A stretch of 64,000 bases of DNA. It comes from Tepidiformaceae bacterium (lineage in GTDB: Bacteria; Chloroflexota; Dehalococcoidia; Tepidiformales; Tepidiformaceae). Shown here piece after piece: positions 1,000 to 64,000 of the stretch. Within the stretch, counting starts at the first letter, position 1. Every line of letters begins with the position of its first letter. The notes below the pieces were generated by a model. The model was not told the origin of the DNA, searched no databases, and saw nothing but the letters and a program-made list of their open reading frames with translations. The translations under genes were made by a program, and so were the position numbers. Location of the stretch: the NCBI GenBank assembly GCA_958295975.1, contig OY282446.1:595289-659288 (forward strand), written 5' to 3'.

Positions 1000-1205
1000 A
1001 CCCCGTCTGCGGGCGGGAGGTCGCGGAGCGCGACGTCGACGCCCTCGCCGGGCGGCTCCCCGGCGGCGCGCGCGAACGGCCATCGGGCGCGGGCGTCAAG
1101 CGCTTCTACGGCGGCCGCTGGCACTACTTCTGCTCCGTCCAGTGCCGCCTCGCCTTCATGGCCACCCCCGACGCCTTCGGGGGCGGCGCGAACGAGCCCT
1201 CCTAA
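948..1205 (+). CDS. small YHS/TRASH-type metal-binding domain protein (start uncertain)
   Basis: DPVCGREV...KRFYGGRWHYFCSVQCRLAF fits the YHS/TRASH pattern (DPVCG...yFCS..C...F). No ATG lies nearby. An in-frame GTG at 948 or CTG at 990 are the only start candidates. The ORF overlaps the 3' end of the ACAD gene. Confidence 0.4.
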   Translation: MSRPRRRHARRGAALALDPVCGREVAERDVDALAGRLPGGARERPSGAGVKRFYGGRWHYFCSVQCRLAFMATPDAFGGGANEPS

Positions 1206-5106: not shown

Positions 5107-5176
5107 GGCCGCAGTATATCGCCCCCGCCCCCGCCGGTCGTGTACCCTTGCCCCGCGCAACGCGAAGGAGGCCCCC

Positions 5177-9626: not shown

Positions 9627-9779
9627 GCGTCGTCTCCTCTCGCCCGCGCTCCCGATTCCGGCGCGGCGCGGGGGCGAGGATACACGAGGGCCGCCGCCCG
9701 CGTTCGCGCCGCCATGCCGCCCCGCCACGCGCTAGAGTGGCCCGCGAACGCCGCCCGCGCGGCGCGGAGGAGGAAGCCC

Positions 9780-10826
9780 ATGCGAGCGCTCGTTTACCGC
9801 GGCCACCGGCGCATCGAGGTGGAGCGCGTTCCCGACGCGGAGACGCCCGGTCCCGACGGCGCCCTCGTGCGCACCACCCGCTTCGCCATCTGCGGCTCCG
9901 ACCTGCACGGCTACCACGGCCCCGTGAACGAGGAGCGCATCGGGCGCGCCATGGGCCACGAGTGCATCGGCGAGGTCGTCTCCGTCGGCCCCGAGGTGCG
10001 CCGCTTCCGCGCGGGCGACCGCGTGCTCGTCTCCGCCGTGGTCGGCTGCGGGCGCTGCGAGGCCTGCGCCGCCCTGCTCACGGCGCGCTGCCCCAACCGC
10101 GAGGGGCGCGTGCTCGGCGCCCCCGGGCTCGACGCCGCCCAGGCCGAGGCCATCGGCGTGCCCGCCGCCGACAGCTCCCTGCTGCGCATCCCCGAGGGCG
10201 TCAGCGACGAGCAGGCCGTGCTCCTCACCGACATCCTGCCCACGGGCTACAAGGGCGCGCGCGGGGCCGGCATCCAGCCCGGCGGCGCGGTCGCCGTGGT
10301 GGGCGCGGGCCCGGTGGGGCAGATGGCCATCGAGACGGCCTTCCTCTTCGGCCCCTCGCGCGTCTTCGCCATCGACCAGGCGGCCTACCGGCTGGCCGAG
10401 GCCGAACGGCTCGGCGCCATCCCCATCGACGCCAGCGAGGTCGATCCCGTCGAGGCCGTGCTCGACCAGACCGGCGGGCGCGGCTGCGCCCACGTCGTCG
10501 AGGCCGCGGGCCCGCAGGCCACGGTGCGCATCGCCTTCGGCGTGCTGGCGCACGGCGGCACGCTCTCGCAGGTGGGCGCCACCGCCGATCCGGAGATGAC
10601 CGTGAACCTCATGGCCGTGTTCGGCAAGGACCTCACCTACCGCGTCGGGCTCGTCTCGCCGCAGTTCGCCTGGCCAGAGCTGGTGCCCCTGCTGCGGGAG
10701 GGGAAGCTCCATCCCGAGCGCGTCTTCACCCACCGCCTGCCCATGTCCGAGGGCCCGCGCGGCTACTCCGTCTTCGACGAGCGCCGCGACGGCGTGATCA
10801 AGGTGCTGCTCGACCCCGCGGGCTAA
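9780..10826 (+). CDS. zinc-dependent alcohol dehydrogenase family (MDR) protein
   Basis: MRALVYRGHRRIEVERVPD...CGSDLHGYHG...GHECIGEVVSVG plus a structural-zinc Cys cluster (GCGRCEAC). GGAGGAGGAAG lies upstream of ATG 9780. Confidence 0.85.
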   Translation: MRALVYRGHRRIEVERVPDAETPGPDGALVRTTRFAICGSDLHGYHGPVNEERIGRAMGHECIGEVVSVGPEVRRFRAGDRVLVSAVVGCGRCEACAALLTARCPNREGRVLGAPGLDAAQAEAIGVPAADSSLLRIPEGVSDEQAVLLTDILPTGYKGARGAGIQPGGAVAVVGAGPVGQMAIETAFLFGPSRVFAIDQAAYRLAEAERLGAIPIDASEVDPVEAVLDQTGGRGCAHVVEAAGPQATVRIAFGVLAHGGTLSQVGATADPEMTVNLMAVFGKDLTYRVGLVSPQFAWPELVPLLREGKLHPERVFTHRLPMSEGPRGYSVFDERRDGVIKVLLDPAG

Positions 10827-10833
10827 GGCGCGC

Positions 10834-13167
10834 TCACTCCCCGTCGGGCACGGCGAACTCCACCTCCCACAACGGGCCAGTCCCGTCGTACTGGCCCGTG
10901 CGCACGCTGGCGATGGGGTAGGCGGGCAGGCGTGCCACCGCCACGCAGTTCCCGTCGATGCGCTCCCCGCTCCGCGCCAGGGTGAAGTCGAGGTTCTCGA
11001 AGCCATGCACCCGGCGAGGCGTAGGCAGGTCATCCGGATCGACCGGCTCGACGTGGAGGAAGAAGCGCGCGGCGGCCTCCTCCGCGGAGCACCCCTCCCG
11101 CAGGTACGTGAGCGCGCGTCCGTCGCGGTAGACGCTGAAGACGGAGCGGGCCAGCGGCTCGCTCGCCAGCGCCTCGCGCCGGGCACGCGCAAGGTCGGAC
11201 CGCGCAGGGTCGGGCGTTGCGGGAGCGATGACCCGCCCGTCGGGCGTGAACTCCGCTTCCCAGTGGACGCCGGCGTCGCTGAGCTGGCCCGTGTGGATGC
11301 TGGCGATGGGGTAGTCGGGCAGGCGCGCGATGGCGATGCAGTTCCCGTCGATGCGGGCATCGAAGGGGAAGTCCCGGTTGTCGAAGCCGTACTCCGCGCG
11401 GCCGGGGGGCAGGTCGTCGGCGTCGACGGGCCGGACGTGCAGGAAGAAGCGACTTTCAATGTCCTCCGCCGGGCAGCCATCCCGGAGGTACGTCAGCTCG
11501 CTCCCGTTGCGATGGATGTGGTAGGTGGAACGGACCAGGGGCTCGGTGGCCAGCGCCGCCCGCCGGAGACCGCCGAAATACGCCACCGGATCGACGAAGC
11601 AATCGAGCGTGACAGCATGGATGCGGCTGACGTAGGCGCCGTCCCGGAGGGGAGCGGGACACGGCTGGCCCCGGCGAAGCTCGTAGAAGTTGCGCTCCCC
11701 GGAACGGAAGTCGCGCGTGTTGGTGAACCGCTTGCGGTCATCCGCGTGGAGCAGCCAGCGGCTCTGCACGTACCGGATCGTGACAAAAAGCCTCCCGGAA
11801 TGGTCCCCGGCGATGGCGCCCAGAACGCCCCCCGCGGACTGTCCCGAGAAATTCAGGTCGTAGCGGGAGGCCAGCCGCTCCGGCGTGGTCCGGTCCACGA
11901 GGACGGTGAAATAGTTGTCCTGCTTCGGGTGGACGCGGACCATGGAGACGGCGGTCACGGCGATGGCCGCGCCCGCCAGCGCATACGTCCCCGCGCGCAT
12001 CCACCGCCCGCGCATGGAGCGCGCCAGTTGGTGAAGCCCGAAGATCGCCAGCAGGAGCAGGGGCGCGTACAGGAAGTACAGATGCCGCCAGCCGCTGGAG
12101 ACGTTGCTCTCCAGAACGACGACGGCCACGACCGTGGCCACGGGCAGCGCCAGCAGCAGGAAACCGAAGCGCGGCGGGCCGTTGCGGAACACGTCGCGGG
12201 GGCGGCGCAGCCCGCGCCACGCCAGCGCGATGGCCCCCAGCGCGGCCAGCAGGAGCACGGCGGGCGGCGTCGTGATCCCCACCCACACGGGCACGTAGTC
12301 GAACGGCGGCCCGTCCGGGGCGTACAGCCATTCGCCACGGAACAGGTTGTAGCCCAGCCAGGGGTGAGAGCTGAGCGTCCCGACCAGCTCCGTAAACTGC
12401 CCGATCGGATCGATCCAGAGCGCCGGCAGCGAGGCGTAGTACGTGAGCATGGCGGTCAGCGCGAAGCCCCCGGCGGTCAGCAGGATGCGACTCCGCTCTT
12501 CCCGGCCGGACGCGGCCAGCAGATCCAGCCCGCGCAGGGCGAGCACGGCGGCGAAGAGGATGATCCCCATGATGCGCAGGTTGACGAGGATGCCGATGCC
12601 CGCCCCGCACAGCAGAAAGGCCCCCAGCGTGTCCCGCCGGAAGGCGCGATGGGTGAGGTAGAGCGCAATCATGAACATGGCCGCGAAGGGGATGTCCTTC
12701 GGGTTGAAGAAGGAGTGCGCGTAGAGACGCGGATGCAGCACGAACAGCACCATTCCCGCGAGCGCAAGGACTCTGCTGTTGAATATCCGGTAGACCAGGA
12801 GGTAACAGAAGACTCCGCTGACGAGGAAGAACAGGTGCGTGAGCATGTGCCGGCTGAGCCAGACGTCCCGACGGTCATCCAGACCGGGAATGCGTTCGAC
12901 GAGCACGAACGGCGCTGCGAAGACCGCGCCGTAGTAGCGGTCAAAGGGAGCGTACAACTGGCCGAAAGCGTGCTCGCCGCCGCCCCCGACATAATCGAGT
13001 GCCGCGTTCCCGATTTTCTGCTGGCTCCCCTCGTCGGACCCGACGCCGTAGTCGTCGAGCACGAGCGCGCCGACCAGCAGGAACCCGGCGCACACGGCCG
13101 CGAGTCCCCAGTGGCGGCGCGCGTGGTGGGCGATGCGCTCCGCGGCGGCGGCCGGGCTGTGCGTCAT
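10834..13167 (-). CDS. GT-C fold (PMT_2/ArnT-like) membrane glycosyltransferase with two C-terminal module copies
   Basis: 777 aa and polytopic. It contains the NPKDIPFAAMFMIALYL-type motif. The C-terminus carries two copies of the same ~100-aa module found in 1202..3145 and 3142..5106. GC-rich throughout. Confidence 0.8.
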   Translation of the reverse strand: MTHSPAAAAERIAHHARRHWGLAAVCAGFLLVGALVLDDYGVGSDEGSQQKIGNAALDYVGGGGEHAFGQLYAPFDRYYGAVFAAPFVLVERIPGLDDRRDVWLSRHMLTHLFFLVSGVFCYLLVYRIFNSRVLALAGMVLFVLHPRLYAHSFFNPKDIPFAAMFMIALYLTHRAFRRDTLGAFLLCGAGIGILVNLRIMGIILFAAVLALRGLDLLAASGREERSRILLTAGGFALTAMLTYYASLPALWIDPIGQFTELVGTLSSHPWLGYNLFRGEWLYAPDGPPFDYVPVWVGITTPPAVLLLAALGAIALAWRGLRRPRDVFRNGPPRFGFLLLALPVATVVAVVVLESNVSSGWRHLYFLYAPLLLLAIFGLHQLARSMRGRWMRAGTYALAGAAIAVTAVSMVRVHPKQDNYFTVLVDRTTPERLASRYDLNFSGQSAGGVLGAIAGDHSGRLFVTIRYVQSRWLLHADDRKRFTNTRDFRSGERNFYELRRGQPCPAPLRDGAYVSRIHAVTLDCFVDPVAYFGGLRRAALATEPLVRSTYHIHRNGSELTYLRDGCPAEDIESRFFLHVRPVDADDLPPGRAEYGFDNRDFPFDARIDGNCIAIARLPDYPIASIHTGQLSDAGVHWEAEFTPDGRVIAPATPDPARSDLARARREALASEPLARSVFSVYRDGRALTYLREGCSAEEAAARFFLHVEPVDPDDLPTPRRVHGFENLDFTLARSGERIDGNCVAVARLPAYPIASVRTGQYDGTGPLWEVEFAVPDGE

Positions 13168-13177
13168 GCGCGCCCCG

Positions 13178-13855
13178 CTAGCGCTGGCGCAGGAAGCCGG
13201 TCCAGCGCGGCGGCGCGCCGGGACGCGGCCCGCCGGGCGGCGTCAGCGTGCGCCAGAAGCGCGCCATCAGCGGCTCGTAGGCGCGCCACAGGGCCACCGT
13301 CGCCACCCAGAAGATGGTCCCGCCCGCCCAGACCGCCAGCAACAGCCGCCAGGTCGCCGCCGTGGCCGTGGGCGGCTCCACGTCGCCGGGGCCGCCGCCC
13401 GCCTCCACCGCCACGCGGAACCAGAGCCCGTCCCCGTCGTACACGTCAAACTGCGAGAGCGCGATCGTCGCCGCCGGCACGATGAGCGTGCGCGCCAGCG
13501 CCAGCGCCAGCGCCAGCGCCGCCGCCATGCGCACGTAGCCGTTGCGCCGCAGCAGCCACAGCCCCGCCAGCAGGCTCGGCGCTCCCGCCGCCGCCAGCAG
13601 CAGCCCCGTGCGCCACACGTCGAAGTAGTAGAGGCACGTCTGCGCGATGTTGCCCTGGAAGCGGCACAGTTCGCCCGCCGACAGCCCCAGCGCCTCCGCC
13701 TCCCGCTCCCCGCCGAGGAAGAACAGGAACAGCATGCCCAGCGGGGCCGTGACCAGCGGCGAGACCGTGATCCAGAAGAAGGGCGACCGCCGCGCCAGCC
13801 AGCGCCACGCCCGCGTTGGCGCCCCCGCCCGCGGGGCGGCCTCAGCCCCCGTCAT
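13178..13855 (-). CDS. hypothetical membrane protein
   Basis: 225-aa ORF with several hydrophobic segments and an ATG at 13853-13855. I recognised no family. Confidence 0.5.
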   Translation of the reverse strand: MTGAEAAPRAGAPTRAWRWLARRSPFFWITVSPLVTAPLGMLFLFFLGGEREAEALGLSAGELCRFQGNIAQTCLYYFDVWRTGLLLAAAGAPSLLAGLWLLRRNGYVRMAAALALALALARTLIVPAATIALSQFDVYDGDGLWFRVAVEAGGGPGDVEPPTATAATWRLLLAVWAGGTIFWVATVALWRAYEPLMARFWRTLTPPGGPRPGAPPRWTGFLRQR

Positions 13856-13870
13856 CCCGCCGCCGGACGC

Positions 13871-14305
13871 TCACGTCGAGAGCTTTCCCCAGTCGCCGCT
13901 CAGGTCCGCGGGGCCGCGGTAGAGCGCCTCCAGGCGGCGCGTCTGGATGTGCCAGTGCCCGTCGATGCGCCGGTAGGTGTCGAAGTAGCAGAGCGAGTTC
14001 ATGGTGCGCCCCTCCGCGCGGTTCAGGAACTCGCCCATGTACCAGCGCCCCGTGGCCGCGTCCCCCGTCACGTCGTCGATCACGCCCGAATAGACGTGCA
14101 TGTACACGTTGGGGATGCCGGACATGATGCGCGTCCAGTCGGCCACGATGGCCTCGCGCCCCGTGCGCGCCGTGCGCGTCACCCACTCGCCGTCCGGCGC
14201 CCAGGTGGCGCCCCACGCCTCCGCGTCGAAGCGGTTGACCGCGTCCGCGTAGCGCTCCGCCAGCTCCCGCAGGGCGGTGTAATCCTCGACCGTCGGCGTT
14301 CCCAT
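13871..14305 (-). CDS. SnoaL-like / NTF2-fold protein
   Basis: MGTPTVEDYTALRELAERYADAVNRFDAEAW... is a typical SnoaL-like N-terminus. GAGGAGGA lies upstream of ATG 14303-14305. Confidence 0.7.
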   Translation of the reverse strand: MGTPTVEDYTALRELAERYADAVNRFDAEAWGATWAPDGEWVTRTARTGREAIVADWTRIMSGIPNVYMHVYSGVIDDVTGDAATGRWYMGEFLNRAEGRTMNSLCYFDTYRRIDGHWHIQTRRLEALYRGPADLSGDWGKLST

Positions 14306-14388
14306 GCGATCCTCCTCGCGTCCGTCCAGCCTACGGCATGGCCGCGTACCGTAGAATTCCCCCAAACGGGACGCGGGAGGGATGCCCC

Positions 14389-15153
14389 ATGGACGACACC
14401 GGCGCGTACGAAGGCATGTTGGCCGAAACCATCACCGTTCCGGGCGACGGCGGGGACCGCATCCACGCCTATTTCGCCCGCCCGCTCGGCGCGGGGCCGT
14501 TCCCCGCCATGCTCCTGTTCCACCACATCCCCGGCTGGGACGAGTGGTACCGGGAGCTGGCGCGCCGCTACGCCCACCACGGCTACGTGGCCATCGCCCC
14601 CGACCTCTACTGCCGCGACAGCCACGGCACCGCCGAGGACGTGGCCGCGAAGGTGCGCGCGGAGGGCGGCGCGCCCGACGAGCGCGTGATCGGCGACGCC
14701 GACGGCGCCATCGCCTTCCTGCGCGCGCTCCCCTACGTGAACGGCAGGGTCGGCGTCATGGGCACCTGCTCCGGCGGGCGCCACAGCGTCCTCGTGGCCA
14801 GCCGCTCCCGCGAGGGCGTGGACGCCGCCGTCGACTGCTGGGGCGGCAACGTGGTCACGCCCCCCGAGCGGCTCACCGAGCGCCAGCCCGTCGCCCCCAT
14901 CGACTACACCGCCGACCTGCAGGCGCCCCTGCTCGGCCTCTTCGGCGAAAACGACCGCAGCCCCACGCCGGAACAGGTTGCCGAACACGAAGCCGCCCTG
15001 CGGCGCGCGGGCAAGGAGTACGAGTTCCACATGTACCCGAACGCGGGCCACGGCTTCTTCTACTACCAGTACCCCCAGGCCTACGCCGCCGAAGCCGCCG
15101 TCGATGGCTGGGAGAAGCTTTGGGACTTCCTCGGCCGTCACCTGGCCGCCTGA
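14389..15153 (+). CDS. dienelactone hydrolase family protein
   Basis: IHAYFARPLGAGPFPAMLLFHHIPGWDEW...VGVMGTCSGGRH...PNAGHGFF matches the DLH nucleophile and His regions. Confidence 0.85.
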   Translation: MDDTGAYEGMLAETITVPGDGGDRIHAYFARPLGAGPFPAMLLFHHIPGWDEWYRELARRYAHHGYVAIAPDLYCRDSHGTAEDVAAKVRAEGGAPDERVIGDADGAIAFLRALPYVNGRVGVMGTCSGGRHSVLVASRSREGVDAAVDCWGGNVVTPPERLTERQPVAPIDYTADLQAPLLGLFGENDRSPTPEQVAEHEAALRRAGKEYEFHMYPNAGHGFFYYQYPQAYAAEAAVDGWEKLWDFLGRHLAA

Positions 15154-15167
15154 GCGGGGAGGACGCC

Positions 15168-15431
15168 ATGTGCACCATGATCGCGGAGAAGATCGAGGTG
15201 GCCGGTTCGGGCAAGGCGCGCGACCGCTGGTTCGACCTCGCCCAGACCTACGTCTCCTTCGACCATCCCTTCCACTACCGGCGCGAGCACGCGCTCAGCC
15301 TCGATTTCGTGAACGAGTCGCTGGGGCCGGGCGCGCGCGTGGCGGTGGAGCTGGCGCCGGACGCGGCGCGCGCCCTGGCCGCGGCCATCCTCCGCATCCT
15401 CGACGAGGGCGCGAAGGCCGAGGGCGCGTGA
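15168..15431 (+). CDS. small conserved hypothetical protein (MCT... N-terminus; from memory resembles DUF6295-type proteins)
   Basis: 87 aa with GGGGAGGA upstream of the ATG and high GC3. Its TGA (15429-15431) overlaps the ATG (15431-15433) of the Fic gene by 1 nt. The family name is recalled, not searched. Confidence 0.6.
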   Translation: MCTMIAEKIEVAGSGKARDRWFDLAQTYVSFDHPFHYRREHALSLDFVNESLGPGARVAVELAPDAARALAAAILRILDEGAKAEGA

Positions 15432-16919
15432 TGGGGGAGAACACGCCCGTCATCGCCCACGAGTGGCGCCGGATCGCGGACCTGCCGGAGAACTGGCGTG
15501 ACCTCTGCCGCCACGACCTCCACGCCGTCCACCGCCAGTGGGTCGATGACCGCGACCTCATCAAGGATCCGGCTAAGCTGGATGCGTTTCAGGATCGTCT
15601 CCATATGCTGTGGGCTATCGAAACGGGCATCATCGAACGCCTCTACCCTGGCGAACGTGGTATTACGGTTCAAATCGCGGCAGCGGGGCTGGAGGCGCTT
15701 GGCCAGTTTCATGCAAGGAAGCTCATCTCCGCTGATGCCCGCGCGCTGATCACGGACCAGCGCGCGGCGCTGGACATGGTCATGGACCTCGTTGGGGGGC
15801 GGCAGGAGCTGACGGCGTTCTTCATCAGGTCTCTCCATGATCAGCTTGCCCGCAGCCAGCAAACGCGCGATGCGGAGGACCAGTTCGGGAAACGCGCTGC
15901 GGGTTCCGCTCTTGAAAGGAGAATGGAAGAAACAGCCGAACAACCCCCGACGTCGCGAAGGATCGATCCACCAGTATTGCCCGCCGGAGTTCGTCCAGGA
16001 CGAGATCGATCAGCTGCTGGTCTGGCACGGGGAGCACGCTGTCGACGAGGTCTGCCCCGAAGTCGAGGCCGCTTGGCTCCACCACCGCTTCGCGCAGATT
16101 CACCCGTTCCAAGACGGCAACGGCCGCGTCGCGCGGGCGCTCGCCGTGGCTGTCTTCCTGAAAGCAGGCCACCTCGCCTTGGTTGTTCGGGACGAGCACA
16201 GGGATCGCTACCTCGGTGCACTTGAAGCCGCCGACGCTGGTGATCTGAAGCCCCTCGTCGATCTCTTCGCCGACATCCAGGTCGCTGACCTTCGTGATGC
16301 GATGAAGTCCATCCTCGAACTCCGTGGCGAGACGATTGTGACCGTCACGGACACACTCGCGGAACGCGCGCGACGGCGCAGGGATGTTCTCCGCAAGCGT
16401 GCTGCTGGCACCATGGACGGCCTGCTTCGGATCGTGCAGGCCCGTTTCGAGGAATCCGGGGCTGAACTGCATCGCGCCTTCGGGGAGAACGGAATGGCTG
16501 TTTCCGTCCAGGTGCGTTCCGACGATGAGCATCCGCAGGAGAACAGTCGTGAATGGTGGTCCTGGCAGATCATCGAGACCGCGAAGGCCCACGATCACTT
16601 TGCCGACCTCGACCGTCCCCGCCGCTGGGTGGCGCTCTATCTGGTTCTGCCGGAAATCAGGGAGGCTACCCGGTTTGTCGTTTCTATCCATGCCGTCGGG
16701 CGCGCCGCCGACTTGCACGTGGTCACGGCCTTCCTCACGAATCCGGTGACAAGCGGCGGGGACGACGAGCCCAGGCGTTGGGAAAGCCGGGTGGTTTCCG
16801 AACGCCCCTTCCGGTTCCGCGCGGAGACAGACAAGGTGGAGGATATCGACAGCCAGTTCCGCGCCTGGCTCGAGGAGACCATCGGGGCCGGCCTGAGCAC
16901 CTGGGGCGAGCGGCTGTAG
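15431..16919 (+). pseudogene. Fic/DOC family protein interrupted by a +1 frameshift
   Basis: The N-terminal part is in frame 2 from ATG 15431 (...FIRSLHDQLARSQQTRDAEDQFG). The Fic core is in frame 3 (GEWKKQPN...PPEFVQDEIDQLL...HPFQDGNGRVARAL, matching HxFx(D/E)GNGRxxR). The switch must lie at about 15860-15925, and the GGGAAA run at 15887-15892 is a candidate site. Confidence 0.7.
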
Positions 16920-24876: not shown

Positions 24877-26046
24877 TCAGCGCCCTTCCGCCGTCATCTC
24901 CGCCGCGCGCCGCACCGCGCCGTCGCCGAAACGGTCGCGCAGCGAGCCCACCGTCTCCGCCAGCCGGTCGGCCTCCAGCGTCTCGCCCAGCCGCAGCTGG
25001 CGCGCGCGGGGCATCAGGTTGGCCACGCCCACGCCGATGAGGCGCACGGGACGCCGCCCCTCCTCGCGCCAGAGCCGCTCGAAGAGGTCCGCGCCCGCCG
25101 CGAAGATGTCGTCCGCCAGCGCCACCTGGCGGGCGGGCGTGTGCGAGCGCGTGAGCGTCTGGAAGGGCGGGAAGCGCAGTTTCAGGACGACCGTGCGCGC
25201 GGCGCGCCCGTCGCGGGCCAGATCGCGCGCCACCTGCTCGGCCTGCGCGCGCAGCACGGCGCGCAGGCGGGACCGCCCGGGCTCGTCCTCGCCGAAGGTG
25301 GTTTCGCGGCTGACCGAGCGCGCCGCCGCCCGCTCCGTGAGCACGGGCGCGTCGAAGCGCCCCAGCGCGCGCTCGCGCAGCTCCTCGCCCATGCGCCCGA
25401 AGCGCGCCCGCAGGGCCGCCGCCGGCCAGGCGGCCACCTCCCCGATGGCGCGCAGCCCCAGCTCCGCCAGCCGCGCCTCCAGCCGCGGGCCCACCATGGG
25501 CAGGTCGCGCACGGGCAGCGGCGCGAGGAAGGCCGCCTCCCCGCCCGCGGGCACCACGCACAGCCCGTCCGGCTTGGCCGCGTCGCTGGCCACCTTGGCC
25601 ACGAGCTTGTTGGCGGCCACGCCCGCGGAGGCGGCGATGCCGATTTCCGCGCGCACGCGGGCGCGGATGGCCCGCGCGATCGCCTCGCCGTCGCCGAAGA
25701 GCCGTTCGCAGCCCGCCACGTCGAGGTACGCCTCGTCCGTCCCCGCGCGTTCGCAGGCGGGCGTGTAGTCCCGCAGGATGGCGTGGAAGCGCTCCGACGC
25801 CTCCGCGTAGTACGGAAAGTCCACGGGCAGGCAGGTCGCCTGCGGGCAGAGCCGTCGCGCGCGCGCCATGGGCAGCGCCGAATGCACCCCGAAGGCGCGC
25901 GCCTCGTAGCTGGCGGTGCTGACCACGCCGCGCGGCCCGGTGAAGCCCACCACCACGGGCTTCCCCGCCAGCTCGGGGCGGCGCAGCACCTCCATCGCCA
26001 CGAAGAAGGCGTCCAGATCGACGTGCAGCACGCTTGGCGAACCCAT
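24877..26046 (-). CDS. dinB: DNA polymerase IV (Y-family)
   Basis: VLHVDLDAFFVAMEVLRRPELAGKPVVVG... and the full-length Y-family pattern. Confidence 0.9.
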   Translation of the reverse strand: MGSPSVLHVDLDAFFVAMEVLRRPELAGKPVVVGFTGPRGVVSTASYEARAFGVHSALPMARARRLCPQATCLPVDFPYYAEASERFHAILRDYTPACERAGTDEAYLDVAGCERLFGDGEAIARAIRARVRAEIGIAASAGVAANKLVAKVASDAAKPDGLCVVPAGGEAAFLAPLPVRDLPMVGPRLEARLAELGLRAIGEVAAWPAAALRARFGRMGEELRERALGRFDAPVLTERAAARSVSRETTFGEDEPGRSRLRAVLRAQAEQVARDLARDGRAARTVVLKLRFPPFQTLTRSHTPARQVALADDIFAAGADLFERLWREEGRRPVRLIGVGVANLMPRARQLRLGETLEADRLAETVGSLRDRFGDGAVRRAAEMTAEGR

Positions 26047-26048
26047 GC

Positions 26049-26060
26049 GAACACCCGTTC
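26049..26060. promoter_or_regulatory. candidate LexA (SOS) box upstream of dinB
   Basis: Perfect palindrome GAACACCCGTTC (GAAC-N4-GTTC) starting 3 nt upstream of the annotated dinB ATG. Confidence 0.55.
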
Positions 26061-39337: not shown

Positions 39338-40468
39338 TCAGTCTGAGAATAAATTAAATTCCTCTGGGTCGGAGTTGTCGACAAAATCCGGGTCGCGCCT
39401 ATACAAGAGATTCGAAAGAACCTCCTCGGGTATTGATTCGCCAGAACGAGTTCGCACCACCATAGGGTCGGGCTGGGTAGTCACAACAAATTGGTCAATT
39501 ATCCTCCGTTGCTTTTTTTCGCCAAAAGATCGCCACGCAGCAGGAGATATCATAATACCTTCAGTTTCATCTAGAATTGTCTTGGACAACAGGGCGGATG
39601 CAAGATTCGTATCTTCTTCCCAGAATGCGGGAATATAGACATGGACTAGGGAATCCCATCCTTTAGGGAAAGAAAGAATTGCAACATTTCTGTCAGGTTC
39701 TGGATAGACTGTCACGAACATTAGTATCTCGGAAGGAGATCGAATAATCCCTCTTTCTGCAATTTTCCTCTCTTCTCGTGGCGTACCCATATTCCTTCCT
39801 TCGCGGTAAGTAACGACATTGGCTGCAATTTTTGGGACACTTTTGATAACAATAATTCGATGTTCCATACCAGAATTTCTTCCATTACGCACGTGAATCA
39901 ATGCATTTTCTACCTGAATTTTGAATCTTTCTGCCAGAGCTTTTCGCTCGGCACTAATAGAAATCCTCGAAGAAAATACAGTCGTTTGGAACTCTCGCCC
40001 GAGTTCTTTATAAAACCTAAGTATCACACACTTCTTGAAGTAGTCAAACAGAACAGTACGATAAGCAAGCAGAAGGCAATGTTCTTCATTGGCAGCATCG
40101 AGGTTTCCTTTTTCGATTTGGGAAAACGTGCTATCATCGTGACGCTTGCATGCCCATTTTCCCGTGATGATCGGATTGCTAATACTACGATACTGACGGA
40201 AAATTTTATCTCTTTCATTTTCCATAGCACTCGCCATGGAGAAGTCTTTAATCACGTCAATGGACAAGATTTGCAATTTCCTCCTCTTATCCGCGATCAA
40301 GATGAGCTTAGCCTTCTGGATCGAGTGCGCCTCAACGAGTTGCACACTGCATTCAGATTGTGGTCCAATGAGACAGCGAGCCTCAGCGTTCCTAGCCCGC
40401 AGATATGCGGATTCCGCGCGCCTGAAGTCCTCGCGGGTAGGGCCATGCGGCCCCAAGTCCTTTTCCAT
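39338..40468 (-). CDS. AT-rich orphan protein (376 aa), function unknown
   Basis: It is the only long ORF in a ~1.1-kb segment that hand-counts at ~42-50% G+C, against ~75% in the flanks. The composition is non-repetitive. The N-terminus has C-x8-C-x7-H (CLIGPQSECSVQLVEAHSIQK). I recognised no family. Confidence 0.65.
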   Translation of the reverse strand: MEKDLGPHGPTREDFRRAESAYLRARNAEARCLIGPQSECSVQLVEAHSIQKAKLILIADKRRKLQILSIDVIKDFSMASAMENERDKIFRQYRSISNPIITGKWACKRHDDSTFSQIEKGNLDAANEEHCLLLAYRTVLFDYFKKCVILRFYKELGREFQTTVFSSRISISAERKALAERFKIQVENALIHVRNGRNSGMEHRIIVIKSVPKIAANVVTYREGRNMGTPREERKIAERGIIRSPSEILMFVTVYPEPDRNVAILSFPKGWDSLVHVYIPAFWEEDTNLASALLSKTILDETEGIMISPAAWRSFGEKKQRRIIDQFVVTTQPDPMVVRTRSGESIPEEVLSNLLYRRDPDFVDNSDPEEFNLFSD

Positions 40469-42288: not shown

Positions 42289-42300
42289 TTCATCCTCCGC

Positions 42301-42314
42301 GAAACGCATGTTCC
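42301..42314. promoter_or_regulatory. candidate LexA box in the lexA 5' UTR
   Basis: On the lexA strand the sequence is GGAACATGCGTTTC. This is GAAC-N4-GTTT, one mismatch from GAAC-N4-GTTC. It lies 12-25 nt upstream of the preferred ATG. Confidence 0.5.
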
Positions 42315-42404: not shown

Positions 42405-44042
42405 ATGGACGCGCGCGCGCGCATCGAGGCGCTCGCCGCCGACGCCGGTTTCGACCGCGTGCGCTTCGCGGGCGCGGAGACGCTGGAGGAGGCGCGCACG
42501 GCGGCGCGCGCGGCCCGGGAGGAGGGACGGCTGGCGGACCTGCGCTGGATGACGGACGGCTGGATCGACCGCGCCGCCGACCCCGATGCGTTCCTGGCGG
42601 GGGCGCGCACGGTGGCCCTCTTCGCGGTGGCCGCGCACGCCCCCGACCCGGCCCGTCCCGACGGACGGGCGCGGGGACGCATCGCCCGCTACGCGCGCGG
42701 GCGCGACTACCACCGCCTGTTCGAGCCGGGGCTGCGGCGCATCGCGCGCGCCATCCGCGAGGAGCTGGGCGGGGAGGCGCGGGCCACGGTGGACTACGGG
42801 CCGCTGCTGGAACGCCCCCTGGCGGCGCGCGCGGGGCTGGGCTGGCTGGGCAAATCGACCATGCTGCTGGCCCCGGGCCTCGGCCCCTGGGCGCTGCTGG
42901 GGGCGGTGGCGACGACGCTGGAAATCGCGCCCGACGCGCCCCTTCGCAAGAGCTGCGGCTCGTGCACGCGCTGCATCGTGGCCTGCCCCACGGGGGCCAT
43001 CGCGCCCGACGGCGGGGAGCTCGACGCGCGCCTCTGCATCAGCTACCACACGATCGAGAGCCGCGCGCCCATCCCGCGGACCCTGCGCCCGAAGTTCGGC
43101 GACTGGATCTTCGGCTGCGACGACTGCCTCAATTCCTGCCCCGTGGGGGCGCGCGGCGGGGCGGGCCATCCCGACCTCGCGCCCGCCTCGGCGGACGACG
43201 CCTTCCCCCCGCTGGCGGAGCTGCTGGCGCTGGACGAGGCCGCCTTCCGCGCGCGCTTCCGCGGACGCGCCATCCGGCGGGCCACGCGCGACGGCTTCCT
43301 GCGCAACGTCTGCGTGGCGCTCGGCAATGTGGGCGCGCCGGAGGACGCGGACGCGCTGGAGAGGGCGCTGGCCGACGGCGCGGCGCTCGTGCGCGGGCAC
43401 GCGGCCTGGGCGCTCGGCGAGATCGCGCGGCGGCACGGGATCGGCGCGCGCGCGGCGGCGGCGCTCGGGGCGCGGCTGGCGGTGGAGCCGGACGACTGGG
43501 CGCGCGAGGAGCTGGCGGCGGCGCTGGCGGTCGCCTCCGCGGCGGGCGGGACCGCGCCCGCGCCGCCGGTCACGCCCGCGTCCGCCGTCACGCTGCGGGA
43601 GATCACGCAGGAGAACCTCGAGGCCGTCCTCGCGCTCTCCGTGCGCGACTCGCAGCGGGGGTTCGTGGCGACGAACGAGCGCTCGCTCGCGCAGGCGCAC
43701 TTCGAGGAAGCCGCCTGGTTCCGGGCGGTCTACGCGGACGGGGCGCCGGTCGGGTTCGTCATGCTCCACGACGAGAGCCTGCGCGCGGCGCCGCGCGAAC
43801 GCGGCTACCTCGTCCTCTGGCGCATGATGATCGACGCGCGCTTCCAGGGCATGGGCTTCGGCCGCCGCGCCATCGCGCTGCTGATCGCGCACGCGCGCAC
43901 GCGGCCCCACGTGACGCGGCTGCGGACGAGCTGGCGGCGGGGGGAAGGCAGCGCCGAGGGCTTCTACCGCAAGCTCGGATTCACGGTCACGGGAATCGAC
44001 GACGGTGGCGAGGTGTGGGCGCAACTCGACCTGCGCGGCTAG
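42405..44042 (+). CDS. queG: epoxyqueuosine reductase QueG fused to a C-terminal GNAT acetyltransferase domain
   Basis: QueG blocks are RIARYARGRDYH, GLGWLGKSTMLL, CGSCTRCIVACPTGAI and FGCDDCLNSCP, plus a HEAT-like region. After an Ala/Pro linker comes a GNAT domain (from ~43587: ...LWRMMIDARFQGMGFGRRAI...GFYRKLGF). There is no stop between the two parts. Confidence 0.85.
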   Translation: MDARARIEALAADAGFDRVRFAGAETLEEARTAARAAREEGRLADLRWMTDGWIDRAADPDAFLAGARTVALFAVAAHAPDPARPDGRARGRIARYARGRDYHRLFEPGLRRIARAIREELGGEARATVDYGPLLERPLAARAGLGWLGKSTMLLAPGLGPWALLGAVATTLEIAPDAPLRKSCGSCTRCIVACPTGAIAPDGGELDARLCISYHTIESRAPIPRTLRPKFGDWIFGCDDCLNSCPVGARGGAGHPDLAPASADDAFPPLAELLALDEAAFRARFRGRAIRRATRDGFLRNVCVALGNVGAPEDADALERALADGAALVRGHAAWALGEIARRHGIGARAAAALGARLAVEPDDWAREELAAALAVASAAGGTAPAPPVTPASAVTLREITQENLEAVLALSVRDSQRGFVATNERSLAQAHFEEAAWFRAVYADGAPVGFVMLHDESLRAAPRERGYLVLWRMMIDARFQGMGFGRRAIALLIAHARTRPHVTRLRTSWRRGEGSAEGFYRKLGFTVTGIDDGGEVWAQLDLRG

Positions 44043-44248
44043 AGGCGCAGGCCCAGCAGCTCGCGCGTGAGCGTTCCCCCCGCACCCACCTTCACCACCA
44101 CCCAGGTGAGGCGCAGCTTGACGGGGCCATCGTCCGTCTCCAGCCACACCTCGTCGCCCTTCTCCCAGCGGTAGTCGGAGTCGATGGTGAGGTAGTGGCG
44201 GCCCTTGCCGCCGGAGAATTCGTCGGCCTCGAAGAAGCTGGTCTCCAT
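44039..44248 (-). CDS. small hypothetical protein
   Basis: 69 codons with strong GC3 bias, directly downstream of tgt on the same strand. Confidence 0.5.
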   Translation of the reverse strand: METSFFEADEFSGGKGRHYLTIDSDYRWEKGDEVWLETDDGPVKLRLTWVVVKVGAGGTLTRELLGLRL

Positions 44249-44258
44249 GCGCGCCAGT

Positions 44259-48242: not shown

Positions 48243-48250
<8 letters not shown>

Positions 48251-48271
48251 GATGCGCGCTCCTCCGCGCCC
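48243..48271. repeat. 29-bp direct repeat, left copy (contains the aroC RBS and GTG)
   Basis: CCCGTCACGATGCGCGCTCCTCCGCGCCC is identical to 49844-49872. The bases flanking each copy differ. Confidence 0.9.
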
Positions 48272-48352
48272 CATGCTACGCCAGCCGCGCGTTACGGCGC
48301 GGGCCAGAACCAGCGTTCGCGCATTGCGGGCGTGGATGCTATCCTGAGCGTG

Positions 48353-49180
48353 ATGCCCGAACCGCGCTCGATCTACCCGAAGCACTTCTCCCAGGGCCCG
48401 CCCGTGCCCCGCAGGAGGACGGGCTTCATCCTGATGCCGTTCAAAGGTGAGTTCGAGCCTGTCCACGAAGCCATCAAGGCGGCAATCGAGGATGCCAATC
48501 TTGAGCCGTTGCGGGCTGACGATGTCTTCAGCACGCAGGCGGGGATGGAGAAGATTCTGCGGGGAATCGCCGAGGCGGAGGTCGTCGTGGCCGACATGTC
48601 GGAGAGAAACGCGAACGTCTTCTACGAGGCGGGCATCGCCCACATGGCAAAGGAGAACGTTGTTCTTCTGACTCGGGACCGTAAAGACTTCCCGTTCGAC
48701 CTCCAGCACATCGACCACATCATCTACGAGCCGAGCGAGAAGGGCCTTCGGGAGCTTACGGAGCGGCTCGGCCAAGTTATCCGCAACCTTCCTCCCGAAC
48801 CAGCATTCGAGCTACGCAGCGCCAGCATCGCTGATCTATCCCCAGTACAAATTAAGCGTGAAATGCGTCGACTGCTCCATTCCTGCAAGCAGCAATGGTT
48901 GGATGACGTTATTCCTGCCCAAATCTCAGTGTTTGAAAAGGATTTTGAAGAGCGTATATTTCGTCACCAGTCGGATGTGGAGCAAGCGAAAGTGATCGAA
49001 GAGTCGATTCGTGTCATTCAGCCTGCTTTTTTGCGATCATGGCGGCCCATCGAAGAGATTGGATTCTCCATTATTGACCGCACGCATAGCGACATTTATC
49101 CCGGATTGATAGATGCTATAGAGCGTGCTTATTCTATCTCAATTATTCCCGGAAATCTTGATTGGATTAGTAGTTACTGA
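48353..49180 (+). CDS. nucleoside 2-deoxyribosyltransferase/TIR-like domain protein (N-terminal part of a TGA-interrupted frame)
   Basis: FILMPFKGEFEPVHEAIKAAI...VVVADMSERNANVFYEAGIAHMAKENVVLLT...FPFDLQH resembles the Rossmann-like NDT/TIR-like fold signature (D..g.n.NV.fE.G.A...gk.vi). Start is ATG 48353, or GTG 48350. It ends at TGA 49178-49180. Confidence 0.65.
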   Translation: MPEPRSIYPKHFSQGPPVPRRRTGFILMPFKGEFEPVHEAIKAAIEDANLEPLRADDVFSTQAGMEKILRGIAEAEVVVADMSERNANVFYEAGIAHMAKENVVLLTRDRKDFPFDLQHIDHIIYEPSEKGLRELTERLGQVIRNLPPEPAFELRSASIADLSPVQIKREMRRLLHSCKQQWLDDVIPAQISVFEKDFEERIFRHQSDVEQAKVIEESIRVIQPAFLRSWRPIEEIGFSIIDRTHSDIYPGLIDAIERAYSISIIPGNLDWISSY

Positions 49181-49186
49181 CCTCTC

Positions 49187-49750
49187 TTGGCACTCCGAAC
49201 ATGGATAGTCTGGGGGGCATATGCACTGGATTCCGAAAATTGGGAAATCGTCGAGACATTACTCCACAGCGAGATTGATTTTGGATATAACCAAAAGAGT
49301 TCGTTCTCCGAGTTCCGGTCGGCATTTTATCCACAGGCTTCAGGTAGAAATATTAAGCTAGCGATAGACTCTGTCTATCAGCAAGGAGAACAGTTGGCCA
49401 ATTCTCACTTTGGAGACACTGAGGCAATGAATGGTTTTATTAGTTTTTGGCTATTTTCTACTGATATTATGGCAGATGCCTCGGATTCTTGGATGCTCGG
49501 TGCGTGGTTCCGTTCTCCTGTAGGACAATTTGAAAAACTTGCTTCTCGTCTTGAACATGATTCTGAATACGCACGGAATTTTACTCAAGCCGTGACCCGT
49601 ACCAGCCCGGCATCGCTAAATCAGCGCTGGCAGGGTGGCAATCCCCTTAATCTTGGCAACCTCCGTAACCGCCTTTTGGATCGTGGGCGGTTGGGATCGA
49701 GAACATCGGCTTGGGATCTTCCCCAAATCCCTCAGCGCTTCGCGGAATAG
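49187..49750 (+). CDS. hypothetical protein in the same frame as 48353..49180 (possible C-terminal continuation)
   Basis: Only a TTG start is available (49187), with no RBS. It lies 6 nt after the TGA and in the same reading frame (frame 2). It appears alpha-helical and I recognised no family. Confidence 0.45.
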   Translation: MALRTWIVWGAYALDSENWEIVETLLHSEIDFGYNQKSSFSEFRSAFYPQASGRNIKLAIDSVYQQGEQLANSHFGDTEAMNGFISFWLFSTDIMADASDSWMLGAWFRSPVGQFEKLASRLEHDSEYARNFTQAVTRTSPASLNQRWQGGNPLNLGNLRNRLLDRGRLGSRTSAWDLPQIPQRFAE

Positions 49751-49843
49751 CGAGCGCTTGATCGCGCGCCGCATGACGGCCACGAGCGCGGCGATGATCC
49801 ATTCCTGGACGAGTACACAGTGATTCTCTCCTTGCGGGCCATG

Positions 49844-49872
49844 CCCGTCACGATGCGCGCTCCTCCGCGCCC
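49844..49872. repeat. 29-bp direct repeat, right copy (contains the 3' end and TGA of 49848..50504)
   Basis: Identical to 48243-48271. On the minus strand it reads ...GCG GAG GAG CGC GCA TCG TGA, the last codons of the upstream hypothetical gene, with an overlapping GTG. Confidence 0.9.
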
Positions 49873-50504
49873 GCGTCGGCGGGGGGGTAGGGGTGGCCGA
49901 GGGGGGGCGGGAGGGCGATGGGGACGGGCGCGCCGCTGGCGTCCGGCGGCTCGTACGCGGTGTCGAGGCGCGCGAGGATTTCGGCGGGATCGAGCCCGTC
50001 CCAATCGATGGCGTCGGCCTCGCGGCGGCGGGCGGTGGTGGTGAGGATGGGGCGCTGGATGGCCGCCCCGCCGTCCGCCGCGAAGGTGGCGTACACGTCC
50101 ACGCGAACGCTCCCGAGGCTGAGGTTGGGGACATCGTACAGCATCATCTCGGCCAGCCTGGCGGCGAGGGGGACGGCCTCGTCGAGCGCGGAGGCGACCT
50201 GCTCGCGCCGTCCGTCCACGGAGCGGAAGGCGCGCTCGGCGGAGGACTGTACGGTCGCGGCTTCGGCGTCGGCGGCCACCAGCTCGGCACGCTGGACGCC
50301 CGCCCAGAGACTCGGGGCCACGTCGCGGGGCGGGCGGGCGCGCCGCCAGCCGGCCATGGCCTCGAGGATGAGGGCGGCCACGATGGCGTGGTCGCCGGAG
50401 GCCACGCGCCGCCGCCAGCCGCGCTGCTGGAACATCTCCGTGGCGATGACCCAGCCGGTGAGCAGGAAGAGGGCGAGGGCGACGCTGACGCCGATGACGA
50501 TCAT
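49848..50504 (-). CDS. hypothetical membrane-anchored protein
   Basis: MIVIGVSVALALFLLTGWVIA is a TM helix, followed by a soluble domain and a Pro-rich tail. The ATG overlaps the aroE TGA (ATGA). Confidence 0.6.
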   Translation of the reverse strand: MIVIGVSVALALFLLTGWVIATEMFQQRGWRRRVASGDHAIVAALILEAMAGWRRARPPRDVAPSLWAGVQRAELVAADAEAATVQSSAERAFRSVDGRREQVASALDEAVPLAARLAEMMLYDVPNLSLGSVRVDVYATFAADGGAAIQRPILTTTARRREADAIDWDGLDPAEILARLDTAYEPPDASGAPVPIALPPPLGHPYPPADAGAEERAS

Positions 50505-60990: not shown

Positions 60991-61020
60991 TTGACAGGAT
61001 GGGCGGCAGGCCCCATTCTT
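60991..61020 (+). promoter_or_regulatory. candidate rRNA operon promoter
   Basis: TTGACA at 60991-60996, a 17-nt spacer, then CATTCT at 61014-61019. It lies about 120 nt upstream of the 16S 5' end. The -10 element is weak. Confidence 0.35.
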
Positions 61021-61051
61021 CTCCTTCGGGCCTGTCGCAGGGTCCGGCGGA

Positions 61052-61060
61052 CTTTAACAA
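61052..61060 (+). promoter_or_regulatory. boxA-like antitermination element (leader)
   Basis: CTTTAACAA matches the core of the E. coli rrn boxA (TGCTCTTTAACAA). A related copy lies upstream of 23S. Confidence 0.4.
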
Positions 61061-61135
61061 CTGGATAGCGGACGAAAGAGAACGTCTGGGAACCCGTCGA
61101 GGGAATGATCCCGGTCTCCGGATCGGGTGGAAGCT

Positions 61136-62640
<1,505 letters not shown>

Positions 62641-62811
62641 AGGGAGTACGCCCTTCCGGCAAGACGCCCCGGCACGCGGTGTGCCGGAGCGCGGAAGGGA
62701 ACAACCCCCAGGTCGATCGTCGCGGGTTCGCCCCGCGGCGTCCCAACAGGCCTTCAGGCGGCCTGCTTCCGTCCGCTATTCAGCTCTTAAAGGCCGTGCC
62801 GGCCCGACCGG

Positions 62812-62888
62812 GGGCCATTAGCTCAGCTGGTTAGAGCGCAGTCCTGATAAGACTGAGGTCTCTGGTTCGAGTCCAGAATGGCCCACCA
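62812..62888 (+). tRNA. tRNA-Ile (anticodon GAT)
   Basis: GGGCCAT/ATGGCCC acceptor stem, anticodon loop CCTGATAAG, TPsiC arm GGTTCGAGTCC, encoded CCA. Confidence 0.95.
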
Positions 62889-62906
62889 CCGCCGTGGCCA
62901 GGGCGC

Positions 62907-62982
62907 GGGGCCGTAGCTCAGCTGGGAGAGCGCCGCCTTTGCAAGGCGGAAGTCGGGAGTTCGATTCTCCCCGGCTCCACCA
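62907..62982 (+). tRNA. tRNA-Ala (anticodon TGC)
   Basis: GGGGCCG/CGGCTCC acceptor stem with a G3:U70 pair, anticodon loop CTTTGCAAG, GGTTCGATTCC-like TPsiC arm, encoded CCA. Confidence 0.95.
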
Positions 62983-63066
62983 TCGGGCAACCTGCGGGAC
63001 CGGCGGCACGGGCTTCGCGATCGGCGAGCGCCAGGGGGCGCTCGCCGGCGGCGAAGCCGGAAACGG

Positions 63067-63080
63067 ACCTTCACAACTGA
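63067..63080 (+). promoter_or_regulatory. boxA-like element in the spacer upstream of 23S
   Basis: ACCTTCACAACTGA compared with the leader ACTTTAACAACTGG at 61051-61064 shows 11 of 14 identical positions. Confidence 0.3.
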
Positions 63081-63173
63081 AGAGCGATGGAACTGCGAAC
63101 GGGTTCGGCGTGCGTCCCCTCGGGGATGGGTGCCGGAGCCGGGAGAGATCCAATGCGTGCGAGCCTTGATTGA

Positions 63174-64000
<827 letters not shown>

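Follow-up and report, generated by a model that had tools for sequence, protein, structure and literature searches.

A low-G+C islet gene in a Tepidiformaceae genome: an interrupted member of a family of TIR/DrHyd-class proteins with a LexA-type operator and a candidate immune function

The islet gene and its lesion

The DNA described here is a stretch of 64,000 nucleotides (the window) from contig OY282446.1 of a Tepidiformaceae bacterium (Chloroflexota; assembly GCA_958295975.1), and our subject is a gene, interrupted by a stop codon, that occupies positions 48353–49750 of the window in a low-G+C islet. The islet is surrounded by an operon of shikimate genes on the minus strand, in the order ruvX, mltG (YceG), aroE, a 218-amino-acid (aa) gene, the islet, aroC, aroK–aroB and tgt. 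On its left side lies aroC (47072 to ∼48250, minus strand) and on its right side the 218-aa gene (49848–50504, minus strand), the upstream neighbour in the operon. A composition scan of the window gave 75–80% G+C for the flanks and only 44–63% for ∼48270–49840, which bears out the foreign composition that a first-pass annotation, made from the letters alone, had ascribed to the islet.

The gene is divided into two open reading frames (ORFs) on the plus strand, ORF1 at 48353–49180 (275 aa) and ORF2 at 49187–49750, which share the same frame and have a TGA at 49178–49180 as their sole separator. A search of 5.8 billion proteins returned 187 matches at E ≤ 1e-3, 31 of which are single proteins spanning both ORFs; these full-length relatives have 433–478 residues and 43–60% identity. 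According to the family alignment, the stop sits on the nearly invariant glycine of GHG(Q/P)LLALRTW, a position at which the orthologue in the related locus L082 has GGA (Gly), and every other family-invariant column is intact in the window copy. The shared frame, the lone TGA and the occurrence of the homologues as single, intact proteins of 455–478 aa indicate one gene and make a two-gene module unlikely. As all of the family-invariant residues are still intact, the simplest reading of the sequence is that GGA has recently mutated to TGA, a nonsense change, or that a base was miscalled. Readthrough of TGA as glycine (code 25) or selenocysteine was rejected as unlikely, since the adjacent 218-aa host gene stops with TGA and the relatives have a plain GGA. 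The in-frame TGA is an inactivating lesion on the plus strand, and the gene in this genome is interrupted and probably non-functional. The ‘one- or two-gene system’ of the first-pass annotation is therefore a single gene with an in-frame stop and is not in working order here; the annotation should record one pseudogene and not two hypothetical proteins.

The lesion falls within the second of two domains. Positions 48353–48793 (plus strand) encode residues 1–147, an α/β domain, and positions 48794–49177 encode a linker and the first part of an all-α C-terminal domain up to the premature stop, as judged from the alignment and a structure model. The rest of the helical domain is encoded by the second ORF (49181–49750, plus strand), which has an insertion of 5–6 residues near its end and finishes with …LPQRFAE followed by TAG. 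The segments quoted from the protein at first pass, FILMPF, VVVADMSERNANVFYEAGIAHMAKENVVLLT, FPFDLQH and IIYE, are all present.

The N-terminal domain

The intact orthologue P0002 was modelled with AlphaFold2 (AF2) using 36 relatives, giving a mean predicted local distance difference test score (pLDDT) of 85.8. The model has a β–α–β–α–β–α–β domain (residues 23–147) followed by an all-helical region; its strands are predicted at residues 23–27, 51–54, 79–83 and 105–109 with helices between them, in the three-layer parallel-sheet arrangement of Rossmann-like folds. The corresponding region of the window protein, a Rossmann-like domain of the TIR/DrHyd class, has all of the family motifs intact (MPF, AD(x4)NANVFYExG(I)AH and PFD). 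Using Foldseek against the PDB, the domain matched DNPH1 (8qhr) with target-normalized template-modelling (TM) scores of 0.64–0.67 and a root-mean-square deviation of 3.7–4.3, at weak E values, and TIR-STING, SPARTA TIR-APAZ, TcpB, RUN1 and TLR10 at E values of 0.014–0.1. Against viral models the best matches were a CAP12/Pycsar TIR domain (5.9e-4) and a CMP hydrolase (7.4e-4), with nucleoside 2-deoxyribosyltransferases (NDTs) also found at TM scores of 0.55–0.57. The Pfam family PF05014 (Nuc_deoxyrib_tr) matched weakly in 23 of the 36 relatives (best E value 4.4e-4) and in window ORF1 (13.6 bits, E = 0.074). The PADLOC hidden Markov model (HMM) for a TIR effector, PDLC00733, gave a local 60-residue match at 6e-4 for the window copy and at 7.8e-7 for P0002.

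The strongest similarity is to bacterial DUF4071 proteins (PF13281 MAP3K_TRAF_bd plus PF20308 TPR-S), which we take to belong to the DRHyd class. hhalign gave 99.3% probability and E = 2.9e-20 over columns 11–152 (∼138 columns), all within the N-terminal domain. The invariant set is common to the islet family and DUF4071: MPF, AD, N.NVFYE.G (NANVFYE.G in full), H and PFD. The family-invariant polar residues (an Asp, two Asn, a Glu, a His and a further Asp) are thus kept across bacterial DUF4071 too. These results support a Rossmann-like α/β domain of the TIR/DrHyd (NDT) class that by sequence is only marginally NDT/DNPH1-like and TIR-like, and the sequence comparisons firmly place its nearest demonstrable relative in the DUF4071/MAP3K_TRAF_bd N-terminal domain, not in NDT proper. 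To our knowledge, the bacterial function of the DUF4071/ASK1-type TIR/DrHyd-class domain has never been tested.

An NDT/TIR-like N-terminal domain was what the first-pass annotation had proposed, with the Glu of a YE.G motif at the catalytic position of NDT enzymes. The fold class is supported, from the AF2 model, the Foldseek matches to TIR, DNPH1 and NDT structures, the PADLOC match and the weak PF05014 similarity; membership of PF05014 by the standard of Pfam does not. The YExG glutamate, Glu92 of the window protein, is invariant in the family and its equivalent aligns with the YELG glutamate of human DNPH1, which agrees with the proposed position, although the hhalign probability of that alignment is only 20% and the DNPH1 sequence was entered by hand.

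The C-terminal domain and its partners

Modelled alone (18 sequences), the C-terminal domain of ∼300 residues is confidently predicted, with a pLDDT of 90.8 and a predicted TM score (pTM) of 0.91; it is all-α with one small hairpin. No structural neighbour was found in the PDB (Foldseek best E value 0.3, TM ≤ 0.25) and no Pfam family matched it in the 36 relatives scanned, so the remaining ∼330 residues, described as unrecognizable at first pass, are as unfamiliar to these databases as they were to that reader. The domain is rare: when 1.84 billion representative proteins were searched exhaustively with HMMER, 67 clusters matched at E ≤ 1e-3, 18 of them at E ≤ 1e-30. A TPR-S identity was rejected, as there was no hhalign match past the N-terminal domain and no Foldseek match, the only sequence hint being a weak match to the TPR protein EMC2 at E = 0.034; with hmmscan, PF13281 and PF20308 were found in none of the 36 members, and the control P0076 strongly matched both.

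In more distant matches the domain is again C-terminal, but the module before it differs: a true TIR_2 domain with matches to ThsB and the PADLOC candidate PDC-S66 (P0285), a Schlafen SLFN_AlbA_2 domain (P0253), ParA-like ATPases (P0270, P0273, P0276 and P0292), one of them with an RNase_H_2 nuclease and a resemblance to PDC-M28B, or a crotonase-fold ECH domain (P0288). Entropy per alignment column is 0.6–1.2 bits in the conserved N-terminal domain and 1.5–2.5 bits in the variable C-terminal domain, within which PAFL.PW..IE.LGF and RTW.LWGA.AL stand out as conserved islands. On the sequence evidence, this is the pattern that would fit a regulatory or receptor module held in common by effectors that can be exchanged.

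Promoter and LexA-type operator

A LexA-type (Cheo) box, GAACCAGCGTTC, lies at 48307–48318 (plus strand), 46 nt before the islet gene, and overlaps the −35 region. GAAC-N4-GTTC is the LexA motif of Dehalococcoides as well as of more familiar groups, and exact copies of it occur four times in the window against 0.48 expected: two in paralogous low-G+C coding sequences, one before dinB and one before the islet gene. The dinB copy, the only other intergenic one, is at 26049–26060, 3 nt upstream of the gene for a DinB-type Y-family polymerase (24877–26046, minus strand), a canonical SOS gene, and this placement is consistent with a LexA regulon of the Gram-positive type in this organism. The same motif is used by the LexA proteins of Firmicutes and Actinobacteria (PMC3323433). 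A box with one mismatch, AAACGCATGTTC, stands at ∼42296–42307 between the divergent genes lexA (minus strand) and queG, where L082 has two mismatches.

Conservation of the box among the relatives is high. Of 13 family loci, 11 have an exact copy starting at −45 to −47; these copies have three different spacers between them and come from two unrelated chromosomal sites, and each is usually the sole copy within 17 kb. Upstream alignment of nine loci gave two conserved elements, GAAC-N4-GTTC and a TAnnnT hexamer that ends 7–8 nt before the start codon; in the window the latter is TATCCT (48340–48345, plus strand), a −10-like hexamer 7 nt before the ATG. TAnnnT is at the same offset in all loci and the surrounding sequence differs between the two sites. 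A simple σ70 promoter scan did not call the TATCCT hexamer. No Shine–Dalgarno sequence is present before the islet gene, so its mRNA is probably leaderless, and the motif suggests that the gene may be repressed by LexA.

Boundaries of the islet

A repeat search of the window found a perfect 29-bp direct repeat, CCCGTCACGATGCGCGCTCCTCCGCGCCC, at both ends of the islet (100% identity, spacing 1601). On the minus strand, the left copy (48243–48271) holds the Shine–Dalgarno sequence and GTG start of aroC, and the right copy (49844–49872) encodes the last residues of the 218-aa gene, GAEERAS, and its TGA stop. The repeat duplicates the gene junction, and as a result both the end of the 218-aa gene and the ribosome-binding site and start of aroC survive. 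In the relatives L082 and L084 the left copy has one mismatch each, and in cassette-bearing relatives the right copy is only a degraded remnant. The first islet bases past the left repeat, CAT at 48272–48274 on the plus strand, supply an in-frame ATG eight codons upstream of the native GTG of aroC, and gene calls for aroC in relatives start at this islet-derived ATG (MGRGGARIVTGRFRF...).

Between the repeats (48272–49843) there is no transposase or recombinase, and the islet gene is the only ORF with homologues. The repeat search found no inverted repeats pairing the two ends, and a terminator scan of the islet found none. An insertion sequence (IS), transposon or integrative element was ruled out, as the islet has neither a recombinase nor terminal inverted repeats; what it does have in common with mobile elements is a flanking direct repeat together with an empty site in a relative. 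The best explanation is a low-G+C cassette of ∼1.6 kb with its own promoter, which entered the overlapping stop/start junction of the 218-aa gene and aroC in a single insertion that duplicated 29 bp of the target. The ‘mobile-like boundaries’ reported at first pass are real in so far as the direct repeat is perfect, but the cassette is not self-mobile: in addition to the missing recombinase and inverted repeats, it occupies the same site in several relatives.

Distribution and allelic divergence

The family is rare and mostly found in Tepidiformales (Chloroflexota); the GTDB species set has a single full-length member and scans of JGI metagenomes gave no full-length member. A phage origin was rejected, as no family member was found in IMG/VR and phage records give only weak matches to the N-terminal domain. 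Every member has a lower G+C content than its host. At the aro site, intact members lie at exactly the same junction in L082, L084 and L085, and in the more distant relative L086 the site is empty: the stop of the 218-aa gene overlaps the start of aroC, with nothing between. The aro site of L084 also carries a convergent gene (9489–11105, minus strand) for a 538-aa N6_N4 type II methyltransferase fused to an HNH nuclease. In the window, the stretch at 49790–49843 (minus strand) has a modest likeness to the region just upstream of this gene and may be a leftover of a lost second cargo gene. In L081 the cassette is elsewhere, between genes for an NTP-transferase and NAD synthase, and is flanked at 7947–8000 and 9538–9598 by remnants of aroC (∼55 nt) and the 218-aa gene (62 nt), indicating that it was transplanted from an aro-type locus as a DNA fragment and not as a defined element.

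The second fixed site has fumarase on one side and a 128-aa gene plus methylmalonyl-CoA mutase on the other, and members are found there in five genomes. An 88-aa upstream ORF was rejected as a conserved small partner gene, as it is present at the fumarase site only and is itself variable. The 128-aa neighbour was likewise rejected as a partner; its degree of conservation is that of core genes, and neither Pfam nor PADLOC gave a match to it. In L174, type IV secretion system (T4SS) genes (TrbL, VirB8, CagX and TrbI) and a HigB-like toxin (9884–15811) lie beside the fumarase-site cassette, and in L090 an IS1595 transposase (5887–6825) splits the fumarase C-terminal gene. The neighbours of P0012 are HEPN_AbiV, UvrD, a transposase, NYN and a serine recombinase. 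The first-pass annotation had set variable islands against nucleotide-salvage operons as the expected context, and the homologue neighbourhoods examined are indeed variable sites and not salvage operons.

Divergence between alleles is far greater than that of their surroundings. At the aro site, synonymous divergence (dS) is 0.17–0.30 in the flanks, 0.44–1.06 in the N-terminal domain and from 1.4 to saturated in the rest of the gene, with a ratio of nonsynonymous to synonymous divergence (dN/dS) of 0.1–0.3 for the cassette gene. Over the two sites, the flanks have a dS of 0.01–0.3 against saturated synonymous divergence in the alleles. Compared with its closest relative, L085, the window copy shows steps in identity near codons 136 and 236, the breakpoints of a mosaic. 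At the fumarase site, L088 and L091 have flanks that are 98.9% identical over 7.6 and 8.0 kb, but for 1.8 kb between sharp edges their DNA has no detectable similarity, and the proteins of the two alleles are 38–49% identical. The pattern indicates that recombination has replaced whole cassettes as well as domains and that old alleles have been maintained, and not fast adaptive change in one lineage. Positive selection on a vertically inherited gene was ruled out, given the dN/dS of 0.1–0.3 and the saturated dS. Cassette replacement between near-identical genomes amounts to a natural experiment, in which the flanks shared by many alleles allow the part of the protein that determines specificity to be mapped.

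A leucine-rich-repeat protein of 528 aa is encoded between queG and tgt in L082 and L084 (2288–3874) and is absent from the window (∼44043–44258), which makes this another variable site in the same neighbourhood.

Interpretation

The genomic context and the evolution of the family suggest a role in defence, and the interpretation that we favour, with about even confidence, is an immune-type, SOS-gated single-protein sensor–effector of the TIR/DrHyd kind that is dead in this genome. LexA would repress the gene through the GAAC-N4-GTTC operator over the −35 region, and DNA damage, phage infection or incoming DNA would trigger the SOS response and release a leaderless mRNA. The variable C-terminal domain would act as a receptor or regulator that restrains the N-terminal domain until its trigger is met. 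The N-terminal domain might then cleave the N-glycosidic bond of NAD+ or of a (deoxy)nucleotide, with the invariant Glu of NANVFYExG at the place of the NDT/DNPH1 nucleophile, leading to cell arrest or death in the manner of abortive-infection immunity. Recombination in the conserved flanks would exchange alleles of the whole cassette, and of the C-terminal domain separately, and their diversity would be maintained in the population.

A more specific version of this scheme is possible, though we consider it rather doubtful. The C-terminal domain may be a previously unseen immune receptor fold that binds fast-evolving phage or plasmid proteins directly and that moves from allele to allele and from one effector type to another (DUF4071-type DrHyd/TIR-like, ThsB-like TIR, Schlafen-AlbA2 and ParA-nuclease). 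Two signals would be needed, LexA cleavage for the protein to be made and binding of the trigger for it to fire, and an NDT-like mechanism with a covalent Glu would destroy a (deoxy)nucleotide or NAD+. If so, the gene would belong to a new family of single-gene defence systems in which balancing selection has left an unusually clear signature in the population.

Several observations weigh against a defensive sensor–effector. The window copy is truncated and says nothing about activity in this organism. PADLOC-DB v2 has no system model that covers the whole protein, giving only the local TIR-effector match. The scores for PF05014 (13.6–18.5 bits for window ORF1 and the 36 relatives) are all below its gathering score of 28.8 bits, and the Pfam TIR models (PF13676/PF01582) gave no match at E ≤ 1 in the window protein or the 36 relatives. 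In the Foldseek search against the PDB, the best E value for the N-terminal domain was 0.013, with none below 1e-3, and flavodoxin-like and PurE folds scored on a par with the TIR and NDT proteins. The case for LexA repression is a sequence motif, and that motif is missing from two of the 13 loci. Several family loci are among ordinary metabolic genes and not in classical defence islands. The difference in composition between the cassettes and their flanks may inflate dS, although the contrast in the proportion of synonymous differences (pS) is still large, at 0.65–0.75 against 0.15–0.24. The anti-phage or addiction module of the first-pass annotation is accordingly a mixed case: the fold class and the variable sites speak for it, and the PADLOC run assigns the whole protein to no known defence family.

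Other roles can be proposed for the same gene. A selfish or stress toxin, that is an SOS-induced growth-arrest or addiction toxin kept for its own spread or for persistence and not for immunity, is unlikely. LexA control is typical of several chromosomal toxins, and the foreign composition, target duplication and patchy presence of the cassette, as well as its move to another site in L081 along with fragments of aroC and the 218-aa gene, would all suit such an element. Yet no antitoxin or immunity gene is conserved alongside it (the 88-aa ORF being confined to the fumarase site and the 128-aa neighbour being core-like), there is no recombinase, and a simple toxin would not be expected to have a large, variable, receptor-like domain under purifying selection (dN/dS 0.1–0.3). 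Distinctly unlikely, in our view, is a housekeeping accessory of the SOS regulon, such as a damage-induced sanitizer of the nucleotide pool (compare DNPH1 acting on hydroxymethyl-dUMP) or another nucleotide enzyme, with no part in conflicts that involve phages or mobile elements. In its favour are the conserved LexA-type operator, the fact that the sole Pfam similarity is to NDT/DNPH1, and the position of the gene, which stands singly, with no partner, among metabolic genes. SOS housekeeping genes, however, are not swapped for saturated-dS alleles between strains that are 98.9% identical; the gene is missing in a relative, foreign in composition and, judging from its stop codon, dispensable here; and its C-terminal domain is common to ThsB-like TIR and PDC-type candidate defence proteins.

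The N-terminal domain might also have no catalytic activity at all. A nucleotide sensor or scaffold like the N-terminal module of ASK1, in which the α/β domain binds a ligand or partner, the helical domain assembles and the effector acts in trans, would be in keeping with the DUF4071/MAP3K_TRAF_bd N-terminal domain as the closest demonstrable relative, which Pfam groups with the ASK1 module. The ASK1 module, an α/β domain with helical repeats after it, is regulatory and not enzymatic (bioRxiv 10.1101/2023.12.20.572539), and TDS-class domains include inactive sensors (PMC9503650). We nevertheless regard this as very unlikely: neither the family nor the bacterial DUF4071 proteins show any variation in the polar residues that an active site would need, no effector gene is conserved next to it, and in relatives of the C-terminal domain bona fide enzymatic effectors (for example TIR_2) hold the same position. 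Each of these three alternatives explains part of the evidence, and none covers the hypervariability, the dispensability and the shared partners of the C-terminal domain as well as the immune-type sensor–effector does. If that reading is correct, the gene represents an undescribed single-gene immune family that joins three subjects mostly studied separately: a DUF4071/ASK1-type domain, a helical domain with no Pfam family or PDB structural neighbour that is used behind several effectors, and direct control by LexA.

Other features of the window

A second low-G+C islet (∼48–54% G+C) at 39338–40468 (minus strand) contains a 376-aa ORF between an alcohol dehydrogenase gene and a holA-like gene; it has no Pfam or PADLOC match. 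Two paralogous membrane proteins, of 647 and 693 aa, are encoded in tandem at 1202–5223 (minus strand; lower G+C, 51–61%), with a weak match to PMT_2 (dolichyl-phosphate-mannose protein mannosyltransferase-like), and an identical GAACAACGGTTC is found inside each coding sequence. queG (42405–44042, plus strand) encodes 545 aa and runs on into a GNAT-like C-terminal region; in L082 and L084 it encodes 386 aa. At 62812–62982 (plus strand), tRNA-Ile(GAT) and tRNA-Ala(TGC) are adjacent, as in the spacer of an rRNA operon, and a spacer of this type accounts for the lower G+C of 61000–64000.

Comparison with known systems

As far as the literature that we searched shows, there is no earlier description of the helical domain or the effectors that it is paired with, of the LexA box, or of the cassette polymorphism at two sites; single-protein TIR-type effectors and the coupling of defence to DNA damage are already known. 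The closest parallel is with bacterial DUF4071 proteins, kin of the N-terminal module of the animal ASK/MAP3K5 kinases, which have a homologous N-terminal domain with the same invariant residues. The plan is also the same, a single protein of ∼450 aa in which a helical domain comes after an α/β domain, and both match the same PADLOC TIR-effector HMM. The helical part of the islet family, in contrast, aligns with neither TPR-S nor the rest of PF13281, and the LexA box, the low-G+C cassette and the allelic hypervariability are features of the islet family, the one family in which they were examined.

NDT and DNPH1 (Rcl; PF05014, DrHyd superfamily) share with the islet family the Rossmann-like fold, the motif (A)DvvvA....(N/G)V.YE.G and, in an alignment of low probability, the Glu. 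The islet family differs in falling below the Pfam cut-off, in having an extra C-terminal domain of ∼300 residues and in not being found in salvage contexts. With the TIR effectors (Thoeris ThsB, CBASS/Pycsar, SPARTA TIR-APAZ and PDC-S66) it shares, probably, the structural class, and also the local match to PDLC00733 and the logic of sensor plus effector in a single protein, and its C-terminal domain is also found behind the true ThsB-like TIR_2 domain of P0285; unlike them, it has no Pfam TIR match and no partner gene that produces or reads a signal.

The arrangement on the chromosome resembles that of cassettes at defence hotspots. Two sites (218-aa gene/aroC and fumarase/128-aa gene) hold very different alleles, one of them is empty in a relative, and other cargo is found at them in the form of the methyltransferase–HNH gene and the IS1595 element, with a T4SS next door. 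The islet sites differ from such hotspots in that the cargo is always the same gene family and not a mixture of systems, and in having no integrase or tRNA target. In its promoter, the islet gene resembles the genes of a Gram-positive-type LexA (SOS) regulon, with the same exact palindrome as is found before dinB. That defence genes are turned on by DNA damage is familiar from WYL regulators (PMC12392091, PMC10693628); as distinct from control by WYL or CapH/CapP-type regulators, the islet gene, on the evidence of its operator, would answer to LexA directly.

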